A stretch of DNA of 64,000 nt, taken from Patescibacteria group bacterium (GTDB lineage Bacteria > Patescibacteriota > Microgenomatia > Daviesbacterales > UBA10151). The position numbers and the translations under genes were made by a program. The notes below the pieces were generated by a model. The model did no database searches. It had not been told where the DNA came from and saw nothing but the letters and a program-made list of their open reading frames with translations. Each line of letters starts with the position of its first letter. Within the stretch, counting starts at the first letter, position 1. The stretch lies in contig JAMCSY010000025.1 of the NCBI GenBank assembly GCA_023379125.1, positions 252 to 64,251 on the forward strand. The letters are read 5' to 3'. Shown piece after piece: positions 16,794 through 21,360 of the stretch.

Positions 16794-16930
16794 TTGACTA
16801 TTTTACCAGCAAATAAAAGCTTTTGCCAAGATAAGCAAAAAGAAATATTCTTTAGATTAAATTCAGGTATTAAATATGCAAGAGGTAAAAGAATTATTGC
16901 TTGAAGTTGTTTTACCAAAAGGTATTAGTT

Positions 16931-17371
16931 ATGATAGCAAATATGAATAATAAACAAATAGGAAATATTGGAGAGCAGGAGGTTGTTGAGCATGTCCCTT
17001 GCCCGAATTGTGGTAAAAAATTGATGTGTTTGCCAGCAAACTTTCCGATGTATGATGTGCAGTGTACTGGTTGTGCTTTTCGAGCTCAAATAAAAACAAA
17101 TAATACTAAACCTAGTACAGAGATTCTGGGAGCTGGCTGGGAGATTATGGATAAGGTTTTAAAATCTGGGTTTATTACACCGCCTTTACTTGCTAATTTT
17201 AAATGGATAGAGTCAGGGCAAGAAAAACATGAGATTCGTTTTTATCCATTTATTCCTAAGTCAAATTTAAAAAAATACAAGCTTTCAGACAAAGCCAGAC
17301 GATCTAACTACTGGATGTTTAAATATATTGGTCTAGATAAATTACCATACTTCTTGGCATATAAACATTAG
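16931..17371 (+). CDS. hypothetical Zn-ribbon protein with a possible PD-(D/E)xK nuclease-like motif set
   Basis: GNIGEQEV ... CPNCG-x17-CTGC ... YDV-x11-QIK; start adjusted from TTG 16901 to ATG 16931 (AAAGG RBS). Confidence 0.4.
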   Translation: MIANMNNKQIGNIGEQEVVEHVPCPNCGKKLMCLPANFPMYDVQCTGCAFRAQIKTNNTKPSTEILGAGWEIMDKVLKSGFITPPLLANFKWIESGQEKHEIRFYPFIPKSNLKKYKLSDKARRSNYWMFKYIGLDKLPYFLAYKH

Positions 17372-17568
17372 CACCTCTAGAAAGAGAAAAATAAATCTAG
17401 CGGATGGGGTTTGTTAACAACCATTAATTTTGTAGTAGGTATTGTTTGTTTGTCTGTTGGTATAACTCAAACTATGTGTAGATTGGTAAAAATTATAGTT
17501 TTGATTTGCTTTTATTGAGTTTCCTAGTATCAACCTATAGTTTGATTTAAAACTAATCTCATGATAAA

Positions 17569-18609
17569 ATGACTTTTATGTTTCATGGTGAGACTGAACG
17601 TCATATAGATGAACAAAGATATATTCAGGCTGTCCAAACAGCCAAGTCTTTTTGGCAACGTACACCGATTCCCAAATCTGATGGAGACAGAAGGTTAGAA
17701 ATTCAAGATTTGCTAGCCAGAATTACCGGTAGCCAAATAGACGATGTGACAGGTAAAAGTGCTGCTGCTTTAAAAACTACTGAATTGTTAAGAGGTGATC
17801 CATTTAGTGACCAGCAAGCCGGAATACTTGACAGAGTTCTGAAATTAGAAGATATTCACTATGAACAGATAGTAGCAAATAGTAGGAAACAAGTGTTATT
17901 GAATACAGAAGAGATTATCGATCTTCAAGCAGGTAATTGGTCAAGAGTAGAAGAGGTCTTCCAAGAATATCCCGAACGCCGCGCAGTATGGCAGGGTGCT
18001 TTAAGTAGACTTGCTGAAGGAGAAAAAATGCAGACTGTTTATCGGGGTATGCAGCTTCATAAGGACGATGTTCCGCTAGTATGTCAGTATGGTATCGTTG
18101 CCCAAGGGCTCTGGCAATCGCCAGATGTCGAAGCACTGTTTACTAGTTCACTATTTTCTTTATGGGGTTTGCCGTGGCTAGGACGATTCGCTCAAAGTAG
18201 CGATTATGAGTATGTAACTGCAAGAACGTTGCTGATGTCAAAAGGTAATCTATTAAGAGATGTTCATTGGGGCGAGAGTTTTAATATAGGTAGCAGTACT
18301 AGATTAGGCATTAGTACAACTACAGAAGCTAGACTGCAAAGAGTAGGGTCAGGAGAACGGTTTTATGGGAATTACCTGTTTGAAATAAAGGTTCCTGCCA
18401 GTAATTTGGTCAGAACAGCTGAAATAACAGGGAAAGCTTTTGGGGAAGATGAAAGAACGATTTTTTATTATATTCCACCAGAAGCAATTACTGCTTACTG
18501 TGTGAATTCTACACATTCGACTTCTAGTAAAGACCTATTTAGCTATTTTGAAGCTAATAAACAGGTTCTGCGCCGAGACTTTCTAGGAAAGTGGTTGTGT
18601 AGAATATGA
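17569..18609 (+). CDS. hypothetical protein with a C-terminal ADP-ribosyltransferase-like (R-S-E) motif pattern
   Basis: VYRG (or GRF) ... GISTTTE ... GEDERTIFYY at spacing compatible with the R / STS / ExE triad of ART toxins; no signal peptide. Confidence 0.35.
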   Translation: MTFMFHGETERHIDEQRYIQAVQTAKSFWQRTPIPKSDGDRRLEIQDLLARITGSQIDDVTGKSAAALKTTELLRGDPFSDQQAGILDRVLKLEDIHYEQIVANSRKQVLLNTEEIIDLQAGNWSRVEEVFQEYPERRAVWQGALSRLAEGEKMQTVYRGMQLHKDDVPLVCQYGIVAQGLWQSPDVEALFTSSLFSLWGLPWLGRFAQSSDYEYVTARTLLMSKGNLLRDVHWGESFNIGSSTRLGISTTTEARLQRVGSGERFYGNYLFEIKVPASNLVRTAEITGKAFGEDERTIFYYIPPEAITAYCVNSTHSTSSKDLFSYFEANKQVLRRDFLGKWLCRI

Positions 18610-18712
18610 CCATTTTAGCAAGCAGTTACCCTGCTTTATTTTTATTTCTTGATTGTCTTATTTACAGAGAGTACAATGGCGCAGAGTTTAAAAAAGGAGG
18701 TGGGTTTTTAAA

Positions 18713-19003
18713 ATGGCAAAAAAAGTTAGTGCTCCAGTAGTTAATCCTGGTCCTGAGATGCAGGTTAGCTTAAACTTGGATAGCACACCAATTTTATATA
18801 CTGACAGTATCTCGATGACAGCAAACCAACTCGGTGTTACTTTGGATGTGATGCAAAGAGTCGGAACTACTAATCAGGTTCGAGTAGTAGCAAGAATTGG
18901 TATGAGTAGGGAACATGCTGAGAGATTTGTAGCTGAACTTGGTAAACTATTAATTTCTAGTGAAGGTCAAAGTGGTGGACAAACACAGAGGTTAGTTAAC
19001 TAA
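18713..19003 (+). CDS. DUF3467-like small protein
   Basis: Strong RBS AAGGAGGTGGG; YTDSISMTANQLGVTLD ... VVARIGMSREHAERF resembles DUF3467. Confidence 0.45.
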   Translation: MAKKVSAPVVNPGPEMQVSLNLDSTPILYTDSISMTANQLGVTLDVMQRVGTTNQVRVVARIGMSREHAERFVAELGKLLISSEGQSGGQTQRLVN

Positions 19004-19132
19004 TTTGACTCTTAGTAACACTTCTGTTATTACCATGTTAGGGGGTGATTTATTTCGTGCCCAGAAAAGCCAAGAAAAAGAAGAAATAATTCATAGTCTT
19101 GTTAAAAGATTTGTAAGATTACTTAGCTCTTA

Positions 19133-19723: not shown

Positions 19724-19764
19724 TCCACTTGCCACACTATTATCTATCTGAAAAAATATAAATT

Positions 19765-19965
19765 ATGAAAAATAAAAAACTATATCGGAGTGAGCAAGAT
19801 CGTATTATTGCTGGAGTTTTTGGTAATATGGGAAAATATTTTAATGTCGATCCAACTATTTTGAGACTAGTTTGGGTGGTAATGACTGTCTTTACTGGTC
19901 TGGCACCTGGTTTAATTGTATATATTTTAGCTGCAGTTATTATTCCTGCAGAACATTCCTCTTGA
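19765..19965 (+). CDS. PspC-domain membrane protein
   Basis: LYRSxxDRIIAGVxGxxxxYFxVDPTxLRLxWV followed by a TM helix. Confidence 0.75.
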   Translation: MKNKKLYRSEQDRIIAGVFGNMGKYFNVDPTILRLVWVVMTVFTGLAPGLIVYILAAVIIPAEHSS

Positions 19966-19979
19966 GATAGTACTATAGT

Positions 19980-20633
19980 ATGATGATAGAGATGGAAATA
20001 AATGAGGGAGTGGTAGGGGTTGGCCAGACATCTCCTGAAGAAGATGTTCCTAAATCGAGTAAGTTAGTTCAGCGTTTAAAGAGTATTGGAGAAAAAGTAT
20101 ATAGATGGCGCCGGTCTCATGTAGAAATCGCACCTAGTGATTTTTTAGCGCAAATTAAACCTCGCGATGCTGAGAATGTTAAGGCTATTGTCGAAGCACT
20201 GGTAGACGCAAACGAAGATCTGTCTGGTATGGTTTTGGTAGCGGTGGGCGGTGCTTTAAAATGGCCTAATCATTACCACAAAGATTTGGACATGGTAATT
20301 ATGGCTACTGATGACAACCTGACAAGTAGTCAAATTGAAAAGTTAAATAAGAGTATTATCCATATAATCGAAAGGTTGGATAGGTTTAAGATAGAAAAAC
20401 AAACAGTACTTGATGCCGATAGTGATGCGCGTGATTTTTATTATTTAAGGAAGCCTGAAACAACAACAGTTCATATTGTTCCCGCTCAGCGTAAAAACAG
20501 TCTAGCTAAAGATCAATTTGATTTAGCAATCTTAATGGGAGATAAATTTTCTATCATCTATCTAGGTGATGGGAATAAAAACTTATTAGAGCCAGCTAAA
20601 ACTTTAGTAGGTTCAGGCCAATCTCCTCACTAA
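19980..20633 (+). CDS. putative minimal nucleotidyltransferase (Pol-beta superfamily)
   Basis: VAVGGALKWPNHYHKDLDMVI matches hGG-x10-DhDh. Confidence 0.45.
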   Translation: MMIEMEINEGVVGVGQTSPEEDVPKSSKLVQRLKSIGEKVYRWRRSHVEIAPSDFLAQIKPRDAENVKAIVEALVDANEDLSGMVLVAVGGALKWPNHYHKDLDMVIMATDDNLTSSQIEKLNKSIIHIIERLDRFKIEKQTVLDADSDARDFYYLRKPETTTVHIVPAQRKNSLAKDQFDLAILMGDKFSIIYLGDGNKNLLEPAKTLVGSGQSPH

Positions 20634-21015
20634 ATTCTCGCTCAATGGTTTCTTCACTAGTATCAATCACTGCCTCAAAAGTGGCACTAATGATACACTC
20701 ATTAACATGTCCTCCAAAACTGTGATGATTTTTATCACAGAGATTAATGTGTAGATGTAAATAAACCTCTTTGTCTTTGGTAGTAATGTTACCTAAAAGT
20801 GGAGCAATCTCGAAATTATCTGTTAATTTATCAGAATAATATTTTTTCTCAACTGGGTCATAAAGCCCAACGGTCACATTATTAGTTGCTCCAATTCCTT
20901 GAATAGTTCCTAATTTGATGTTTTCCTGAATACAAAACTCTTTAAGAGTCTGGACAATATCTTGACCTTTATCGACTCTTAAAAAATATTTACTGCCAAC
21001 TTTTCTAAATTCCAT
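20596..21015 (-). CDS. PPC/DUF296-domain protein
   Basis: N-terminus MEFRKVGSKYFLRVDKGQDIVQTLKEFCxxxxIKLGTIQGIGA typical of the PPC (DUF296) domain. Confidence 0.6.
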   Translation of the reverse strand: MEFRKVGSKYFLRVDKGQDIVQTLKEFCIQENIKLGTIQGIGATNNVTVGLYDPVEKKYYSDKLTDNFEIAPLLGNITTKDKEVYLHLHINLCDKNHHSFGGHVNECIISATFEAVIDTSEETIEREFSEEIGLNLLKF

Positions 21016-21072
21016 GTTAGTTATTGTAACATATGATGTGACAATTAGTCCCAGTTGTTGTAAACTGATGGC

Positions 21073-21360
21073 GTGTTAATTGATTTTATTTATCTGCACC
21101 CTAATTTGATTAGAAATATAGTACTAGCCATTTTAGTTGGGACTTTAGTGGGATTAATTATTTCCTCAATCTATAAATCTGGTAAAGTAAATTTAGCTGA
21201 TGTTTGTTGTGGGGTAATAGGAGCTCTCTTAGGAGGATATTTACTTTTTAATTTGGGGCAACAAAGTGACTCTTATACTGAACCTTTCAGCTTAGCTGGC
21301 TCGCAAATACTAGGCGCAGCGCTAATGGCTCTGGGGAAAAGAATCTTGTTTAGAGGTTAG
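21073..21360 (+). CDS. GlsB/YeaQ/YmgE-family small membrane protein (GTG start)
   Basis: Gly-rich TM helices VIGALLGGYLLF. Confidence 0.6.
   Translation: MLIDFIYLHPNLIRNIVLAILVGTLVGLIISSIYKSGKVNLADVCCGVIGALLGGYLLFNLGQQSDSYTEPFSLAGSQILGAALMALGKRILFRG

Follow-up and report, generated by a model that had tools for sequence, protein, structure and literature searches.

Mono-ADP-ribosyltransferases (ARTs) of the R-S-E type share a canonical layout, with the three motifs placed on β1, on β2-α and on the ARTT-loop-β5, respectively. Among them, the toxins specific for arginine carry ExE, the C3-type toxins specific for asparagine carry QxE and the guanine-specific enzymes Q-x-E; ARTs also serve in known defence systems such as CmdTAC and DarTG. 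Among nucleases, R.DpnI and the neisserial Dam-replacing protein (NmeBII) are type IIM enzymes of ~254 amino acids with a four-cysteine zinc ribbon, a D..ExK active site and a C-terminal winged-helix domain which reads N6-methyladenine (m6A). Their family, PF06044, is listed among the restriction endonuclease families (PMC3424549). Here we analyse a stretch of 64,000 nucleotides (below, the window) from contig JAMCSY010000025.1 of a Patescibacteria group bacterium (assembly GCA_023379125.1), in which two adjacent genes, g1 and g2, encode divergent members of these known kinds. They open a block of eight open reading frames (ORFs), g1 to g8, which an earlier reading of the DNA, the original prediction, had taken for an accessory island and for one undescribed defence or toxin-immunity module.

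Our analysis indicates that this 4.5-kb stretch is probably not one system but part of a variable interval, from ~13.4 to 30.8 kb of the window, which holds unrelated small genes: the nuclease g1, the ART-like g2 and the ordinary or uncharacterised g3 to g8. Two finds stand: g1 belongs to a highly conserved DpnI-type family which lacks the reader domain and accompanies defence islands, and g2 represents an unclassified R-S-E ART-like family with a private N-terminal domain and a position in the chromosomal backbone. Literature searches on Patescibacteria or the candidate phyla radiation (CPR), DUF3467, DpnI-like proteins and ADP-ribosyltransferases found no description of either family. The analysis revealed no new defence module, which is worth recording so that the stretch is not pursued as one.

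Linkage and setting of the eight genes

All eight ORFs placed by the original prediction between an ATP-binding cassette (ABC) exporter (15056-16793, minus strand) and pgi (21363-22424, minus strand; 21363-23803 together with pmm) were found in the window ORF list (8/8), each at its given position. Homologues of g2 occur at 16 loci, in six contexts besides the window (L001, L003, the L004 group, L007, the L008 group and L103), and no homologue of g1 or of g3 to g8 was detected near them by BLASTP (E<=1e-3) or phmmer (E<=1) among ORFs of at least 40-50 amino acids. In particular, g3 has no homologue at any of the 16 loci, phmmer matches at E<=1 included, and the co-occurrence of 17569..18609 (g2) with 18713..19003 (g3) which the original prediction had raised was never seen at them. 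Likewise, no homologue of g2 to g8 is present in five contexts of g1 homologues, and the regions of +/-10 kb around pgi in 80 related Microgenomates-group genomes contain none for any island gene. The homologues are therefore scattered without conserved linkage, which is the pattern named beforehand as speaking against a single module; the housekeeping folds named along with it do not hold for g2, whose model is that of an ART. Since no two island genes are linked at the g2, g1 or pgi loci, the idea of one undescribed module finds no support, and g3 to g8 show no detectable link to g1 or g2 at any of these loci.

The pgi genes closest to that of the window, from metagenome-assembled genomes labelled Levy-, Davies- and Microgenomates, have 42-54% identity to it. 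The related genomes (L015-L094) typically present the order pmm-pgi-PPDK-enolase (35 and 32 of 80), whereas the window presents PPDK-enolase-...-udg-pmm-pgi on the same strand (21363-30491), which indicates that the glycolytic cluster was rearranged and that the 3' side of pgi, where g3 to g8 lie, is a rearrangement breakpoint.

The accessory character of the block stands as far as its absence from the same site in 80 relatives is concerned, but not for deviant composition, mobility genes or borders formed by tRNAs or repeats. The GC content of g1 to g8 is 0.33-0.40 and that of their third codon positions 0.23-0.31, the respective values of the other 64 genes of the window (a low-GC stretch, ~37%) being 0.379 +/- 0.024 and 0.287 +/- 0.039, and the codon-usage distances of g1 to g8 fall inside the spread of these 64 genes, so that the proposed comparison with the flanks revealed no difference. 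The island proteins carry no integrase or transposase domain detectable with Pfam, the sole tRNA of the window is at 30553, the repeats found around the block are chance-level matches of 14-15 nt, and the block has no Rfam match. A mobile-element origin was rejected, given the lack of these tRNA, repeat and Rfam features and the lack of relatives of g1 and g2 in phages, plasmids and viral contigs. The promoter-like AT-rich spacers which the original prediction had assigned to individual genes did not hold up either: 22 promoter-like sites were observed and 17.8 +/- 4.6 in shuffled sequences, which is chance level, and a separate promoter for each gene was dropped as evidence.

The nuclease g1

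The gene g1 (M1563_04425 in the NCBI annotation; 16943..17371, plus strand) encodes a DpnI-type PD-(D/Q)XK nuclease domain standing alone, of 142 amino acids. Its ORF is open from a TTG at 16901, and the likely start is the ATG at 16943, in agreement with the NCBI call and with the homologues. The protein matches Pfam PF06044 with an E-value of 5.9e-12 (46.1 bits, cut-off 26.7) over profile positions 1-152 of 183, and the PADLOC model mREase_II with 4.1e-10 over positions 1-150 of 256; among the island genes it is the only one matched by PADLOC. The description of this gene as Zn-ribbon and nuclease-like was thus borne out and sharpened to a DpnI catalytic domain, while the statement that no gene of the block belongs to a named defence system was wrong, g1 being of DpnI/mREase_II type. 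The winged-helix, m6A-reading C-terminal domain is absent, the protein stopping at 152/183 of the Pfam and 150/256 of the PADLOC profile. In the phmmer alignment with DpnI (4ESJ), CPNC...D...CTGC of g1, the part of the zinc ribbon and active site CPNC...D...CTGC...QIK (17000..17098, plus strand), is superposed on CPNC...CNHC of DpnI, and the aspartate and lysine are aligned with those of D..ExK, with a glutamine in place of the glutamate (QIK over ELK).

The family comprises >1,342 clusters at 90% identity, of ~143 amino acids. Among the best 120 of these homologues, which are 141-169 amino acids long (78/120 exactly 143) and 67-75% identical to g1, the pattern CPxC..D..CxxC..QxK is kept in 120/120, with Q at its position without exception, and an N-terminal GExE is likewise conserved. 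The invariant glutamine is therefore a trait of the family and not a sign of decay; for the catalytic domain of Mrr, the form given is PD-QXK, an accepted active variant in that enzyme (PMC11037411). The source labels of the homologues include Patescibacteria, Omnitrophota and Nanoarchaeota. As an observation in its own right, ~70% identity across such labels is unusually high for a restriction-type nuclease. No relative of g1 was found in the phage, plasmid or IMG/VR collections.

The neighbourhoods of the homologues contain adjoining restriction-modification (R-M) or Abi/SIR2 genes in 4/5 independent contexts. A homologue lies directly before an N6_N4 methyltransferase and a ResIII helicase in L096 (2565-2996), directly after hsdM-hsdS-AAA_15-hsdR in L097 (6001-6432), two genes from an Eco57I-type methyltransferase and a T5orf172/ResIII protein in L100 (6001-6432), and among AbiEii, a SLFN-type helicase and SIR2_2 in L104 (6001-6432). 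The sole context without adjacent defence genes is L098, where the homologue follows rpoBC with a Phd/ParE pair near. The R-M neighbours are of type I, type III-like or type IIG-like.

The gene g1 thus encodes a member of the DpnI catalytic-domain family with invariant motifs, whose relatives have defence-island neighbourhoods elsewhere. Most probably it acts on its own as a restriction-type nuclease of type IIM/IV that depends on modification, its activity and this dependence being proposals. The enzyme would cut incoming DNA bearing a base modification which the host lacks, and since its target would be a modification missing from the host, it would need no cognate methyltransferase. No ORF of at least 150 amino acids in the window contains the amino-methyltransferase motif [DNS]PP[YFW]. 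The 4-bp palindromes of the window were also counted: the lowest ratios of observed to expected counts are those of TGCA (0.68) and TATA (0.75), and that of GATC (0.84), only mildly low, is uninformative on the specificity of g1. With its reader-less D..QxK core strongly conserved in ultra-small bacteria and archaea and travelling with R-M and Abi genes, the DpnI-domain protein of 143 amino acids is a candidate for a minimal nuclease dependent on modification and might serve as a tool enzyme.

The ART-like protein g2

The gene g2 (M1563_04430; 17569..18609, plus strand) encodes an ART-like protein of two domains: an all-helical N-terminal domain of about residues 1-150 (17569..18018; motif DPLTDQQAG..AR), delimited by modelling and alignment, and a C-terminal ADP-ribosyltransferase-like domain (18019..18609), delimited by structural matches and motifs. 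The family is rare. A word-indexed search of 5.8 billion clustered proteins returned 4 proteins, and a profile of these 4 sequences, run exhaustively with HMMER against 1.84 billion representatives, returned 33, of which 21 at <=1e-30. Most full-length members have ~290-340 amino acids, and the named ones are all Patescibacteria. For g2 itself nothing was found in Pfam, NCBIfam, PADLOC or PHROGs, nor any relative in the phage, plasmid or IMG/VR collections, and a search of the GTDB species representatives for related loci returned nothing. Searched against Pfam, 24 members of the family gave no convincing match and no ART family, and profile searches of the PDB with the alignments reached no ART. 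The matches of the profile to Mediator MED7 in the PDB were discarded as spurious; they fall in the helical N-terminal domain.

Three motifs are conserved in the 24 sequences. R159, in TVYRGM (18034-18051), is present in 24/24 with the consensus [VL][YF]R; S249, in LGISTTT (18304-18324), is present in 22/24 and followed by T-T (LG[IM]S[T]T); in EDERT (E293 and E295; 18445-18459), position 295 is acidic (E/D) in 23/24 and position 293 in 17/24. Within the N-terminal domain, P78, Q82, G85 and R89 are invariant or almost so in the 22 sequences covering the region. The architecture is fixed, all members combining this domain with the ART-like one, and g2 has no signal peptide.

The structure was predicted with AlphaFold2 from 24 sequences (pLDDT, the predicted local distance difference test score, 83.8; predicted template modelling score 0.86), a model from 4 sequences being unusable (pLDDT 40.5). 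It presents helices over residues 15-145, mostly with pLDDT >90, followed by a beta-rich domain in which R159 is on strand 154-161, S249 on strand 247-251 leading into a helix, and E293/E295 directly before strand 296-299; these strands match those expected for β1, β2 and β5 of ARTs. Nearly all the top 50 matches of the model in a Foldseek search of the PDB are R-S-E ARTs, among them pertussis S1, EcPltA, Scabin, ScARP, TreX/TreTu, cholera/LT A1, MTX and TccC3, with probabilities up to 0.99 and target-normalised template modelling (TM) scores of ~0.35-0.54. The alignments to these ARTs span at most ~220 columns, and the N-terminal domain is therefore probably without counterpart in the ARTs of the PDB. 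A comparison of the family with a manually entered sequence of cholera toxin A1 by hhalign was non-significant (E 0.23), and the sole segment aligned pairs E293-x-E295 with E110-x-E112 of the toxin. On the model, the C-terminal domain is likely to have the ART fold. The original call of an ART-like protein thus stands on structure and motifs but finds no support from any sequence model.

By analogy with enzymes of the cholera-toxin type, ADP-ribosyl transfer by g2 is plausible: NAD+ would be bound by R159 and S249-T-T, with E295 as the catalytic residue of the transfer. As its third motif reads E-x-E, g2 would be expected to modify an arginine of a target protein. The activity would be regulated through the N-terminal domain, or the target would be absent from the producer. 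A DNA-directed ART, an idea raised by the matches to Scabin and ScARP and by MGMT, UvrD-like and g1 neighbours, was down-weighted because most members carry E-x-E, the neighbours are not conserved and the 'NYN-like' neighbour in L003 has no Pfam support.

The chromosomal address of g2 is shared by two distant lineages. The order rpoA-rplQ-rplM-rpsI ... g2 ... recA-recX-rny is common to the window, L008 and L010. The first of these backbone anchors (rpoA-rplQ-rplM-rpsI; 11164..13410, plus strand in the window) is homologous to the block upstream of the g2 homologues in L008, L010, L011 and L012, and the second (recA-recX-rny; 30833..34146, plus strand), both assigned with Pfam, to the block downstream of them in L008 and L010. 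In L010 (syntenic span 1593-6825) the homologue (2466-3380) lies ~400 bp behind rpsI and 2.4 kb ahead of recA; L008 (2904-8948) has the same order plus insertions; in L012 (5884-10858) rpsI is 3.6 kb upstream, and only this side is seen because the contig ends before any recA. The two lineages are far apart, with identities of ~32-33% for g2, ~49% for S9 and 66% for RecA. L010 has 3.7 kb between rpsI and recA and the window 17.4 kb, and g2 is the sole gene shared inside this interval, so that g2 behaves like an old resident and not like recently acquired cargo. With no conserved adjacent immunity gene, no signal peptide and a position kept in two distant lineages, g2 is better explained as a resident enzyme than as a mobile toxin cassette. 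The interval itself resembles a hotspot of insertion and rearrangement, and as a variable site it may be mined in other CPR genomes.

The genes beside the homologues differ from one context to another: a UvrD-like helicase (1627-3291) 19 bp downstream in L001, an ORF of 94 amino acids without family in L003, ORFs of 203 and 186 amino acids without family in the L004 group, a convergent hydrolase in L007, an MGMT-domain protein and an SNase-like protein in L008/L010, and sugar-nucleotide genes in L103; a convergent NTP_transferase gene is among the downstream genes seen across contexts. The MGMT-domain and SNase-domain genes occupy 5181-5477 (minus strand) in L008 and 2133-2501 and 3383-4060 (both minus strand) in L010; the small MGMT-domain protein has a PCHR motif and is divergent from the g2 homologue. 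Such DNA-repair and nuclease neighbours do not form a pattern conserved among contexts.

Brought together, these elements allow a full scenario, which we offer tentatively as possible in this complete form: the g2 family would be an undescribed group of active arginine mono-ARTs restricted to Patescibacteria, with a helical regulatory or targeting domain, vertically kept between rpsI and recA, directed at a core, host or phage target and having no immunity gene, and g1 would independently be a minimal, reader-less DpnI nuclease of a family spread at ~70% identity among ultra-small bacteria and archaea. Most CPR bacteria are uncultured and live as epibionts, and few effectors or immune genes have been recognised in them; g2, a conserved ART-like protein invisible to Pfam, can be cloned and is a candidate enzyme of host interaction or regulation.

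Remaining genes, alternative readings and known systems

The genes g3 to g8 are ordinary or uncharacterised small proteins. The assignment of g3 (18713..19003, plus strand; 96 amino acids) to DUF3467 (PF11950) remains weak, with a full-length match (residues 14-86 on profile positions 13-86 of 92) but a score below the gathering threshold (E 0.0021; 18.5 bits, cut-off 25), and no sequence of the PDB matches it. The PEBP, PspC and PPC calls of the original prediction were confirmed: g4 (19133..19723, plus strand) is a PEBP of the YbhB-YbcL type (PF01161 1e-35, TIGR00481 4.1e-32) with a hydrophobic N-terminus (MRRVCLLAIIPVLIGGGLWGYF), g5 (19765..19965, plus strand) is a PspC-domain membrane protein of 66 amino acids (PF04024 1.7e-21), g4 and g5 both being membrane-anchored, and g7 (20596..21015, minus strand) is a PCC (DUF296/PPC) domain protein (PF03479 1.4e-31), convergent with g6 with an overlap of 38 bp. 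At the end of the block, g8 (21073..21360, plus strand) is a membrane protein of 95 amino acids, weakly GlsB/YeaQ/YmgE-like (PF04226, Transgly_assoc; sub-threshold with E 0.001 and 19.7 bits, cut-off 25.3).

For g6 (19980..20633, plus strand), an ORFan of 217 amino acids, no match was found in Pfam, NCBIfam, PADLOC, PHROGs or the PDB, where the best hits, myoglobins, were set aside as noise, and the search of 5.8 billion clustered proteins returned only the protein itself, at 100% identity. The same gene order as around g6 occurs in a contig of the same organism (L095), and its codon usage is typical of the genome. Its motif VGGx10DLDM (VGGALKWPNHYHKDLDM, residues 89-105, at 20244-20294) fits the signature hG[GS]x9-13DhDh of Pol-beta nucleotidyltransferases (NTases), a pattern present in 7/1,195 background ORFs (0.6%). 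The 'minimal NTase' label is hence a guess at motif level: the motif is there, but family match and homologues are lacking.

Around these genes, the gap of 197 bp between g1 and g2 contains only ORFs of 35-42 amino acids, none with support, and a terminator-like hairpin followed by a T-run lies directly 3' of g2 (18620..18636, plus strand), as one consensus match of a kind whose number of sites is not above that in shuffled sequences. Elsewhere in the window, an ORF of 546 amino acids right behind rpsI (13415-15055) possibly encodes a secreted protein from a family not yet described, as it has a twin-arginine-like N-terminus (GRRQLLKFAG...) and no Pfam match. Another ORF without Pfam match, of 223 amino acids (25119-25790, minus strand), is flanked by Sua5 and a 2-hydroxyacid dehydrogenase gene. 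Finally, the 3' ends of pgi and pmm contain a direct repeat of 23 nt (22/23 identical; 21364-21386 and 22443-22465), and the peptide FKEKLSK is found at or near the C-terminus of both Pgi and Pmm.

Several points weigh against the picture of unrelated genes, one of them a resident ART. The Foldseek E-values for g2 are only 0.04-0.7, and ARTs were beyond the reach of every sequence profile tried with it. A subclade has M-x-D in place of E-x-E (6-7/24 sequences), and activity or specificity may therefore vary within the family. For g1, the glutamine replacing the glutamate of DpnI could signify non-catalytic DNA binding. Concerning linkage, many contexts of g2 are short contigs of 1.3-4.4 kb, on which a partner located some kb off could have escaped detection, and a cryptic link at the level of folds is conceivable, for instance if g3 were an immunity protein or chaperone of g2 particular to this lineage. 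The relatives compared at pgi being distant (42-54%), the absence of the island from them indicates a variable site and says little on a recent gain.

Among the alternative readings, the one which survives best, and which we nevertheless find unlikely, takes g1 and g2 for independent defence genes forming a two-gene mini island, with g2 as an NAD+-using abortive-infection effector. Such a function would have precedents in the defence systems which employ ARTs, the two genes are adjacent, and homologues of g1 lie among defence genes, once directly before the NAD+-consuming SIR2_2 gene. Against it, g2 also lies between rpsI and recA in a distant lineage, where no g1 accompanies it, its other homologues are found among repair, housekeeping and sugar-metabolism genes and not among defence genes, PADLOC does not match it, and no sensor or antitoxin partner was found at its loci.

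Somewhat more doubtful is that g2 is not an ART at all, its motifs and Foldseek matches being coincidental. All the Foldseek E-values are indeed >0.03, no sequence profile reaches an ART, the hhalign comparison with the manually entered sequence of cholera toxin A1 is non-significant, and the query-normalised TM scores are 0.2-0.25; these last are low because g2 has two domains and only about half of it is aligned. Chance would not be expected to fill nearly all the top 50 matches with a single ART clade, nor to produce three conserved catalytic motifs whose order and strands are correct, and the sole segment aligned by hhalign pairs the two E-x-E motifs.

It is more improbable still that g2 and g3 form a lineage-specific pair of ART toxin and immunity protein or chaperone, in which the DUF3467-like protein would neutralise the ART. 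The gene g3 lies 103 bp downstream of g2 on the same strand, an active ART without protection would endanger the cell, and the toxins TreX and TreTu, structural neighbours of g2, were crystallised together with immunity proteins; Tre toxins are neutralised by Tri proteins, and CmdTAC offers a comparable precedent. A g3 homologue is present at 0/16 g2 loci, where the place downstream is taken by varying genes (a UvrD-like helicase, ORFs of 94 and 203 amino acids, a convergent hydrolase, SNase-like and NTP_transferase genes), the terminator-like hairpin and promoter-like hexamers separate the two genes in the window, and the fixed architecture of N-terminal domain and ART is unlike that of polymorphic toxin cassettes. 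As to the eight genes being one undescribed defence or toxin-immunity system uniting ART, nuclease and nucleotidyltransferase, the conflict-type folds of g1 and g2 on the same strand side by side, the defence islands of g1 homologues and the NTase-like motif of g6 do not save this highly improbable idea from the absence of any linked gene pair at the g2, g1 and pgi loci, the ordinary nature of g4, g5 and g7 (PEBP, PspC, PCC), the restriction of PADLOC matches to g1, the lack of homologues of g6, the use of both strands, the gaps of 100-200 bp and the hairpin behind g2.

Compared with known systems, the genes of the block fall at different distances. With the minimal nucleotidyltransferase (MNT) of MNT-HEPN pairs, g6 shares hG[GS]x9-13DhDh in a strand-turn-strand-like sequence context, but it has neither a match to the NTP_transf_2/Polbeta families nor homologues, it is much longer with its 217 amino acids, and its neighbour is the convergent PCC protein and not a HEPN protein. 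For g1, R.DpnI and NmeBII share the zinc ribbon and the aspartate and lysine of the active site and, like g1, have no cognate methyltransferase nearby; they differ by their length, ~254 versus 142 amino acids, because the winged-helix reader is missing in g1, and by the glutamate of D..ExK where the g1 family has its invariant glutamine. With the Mrr-type type IV nucleases g1 shares the D..QxK variant of PD-(D/E)XK and, as proposed, the logic of a solitary modification-dependent enzyme, whereas its sequence matches no Mrr family, its fold family is that of DpnI and it has no N-terminal reader domain.

Like the transferases of DarTG, CmdTAC and ParT-ParS, g2 is a predicted NAD+-using transferase, potentially toxic, and a small gene follows it in the window, but the conserved antitoxin, hydrolase or chaperone partner of those systems is missing at all the other g2 loci; for DarT in particular, only a weak and partial viral match was obtained, and g2 has no PADLOC match. 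From the R-S-E mono-ARTs (cholera- and pertussis-toxin-like enzymes, Scabin/ScARP and the Rhs toxins TreX/TreTu), g2 differs by the lack of sequence-profile similarity, by the long spacing of 90 residues between R and STT, by a unique helical N-terminal domain of 150 amino acids, and by its chromosomal anchoring, with no B-subunit, Rhs or secretion context and no conserved immunity gene. These enzymes are nonetheless the best structural neighbours of its C-terminal domain, with which they share the triad R / S-T-[ST] / E-x-E, canonical in its order and in the strands that carry it.

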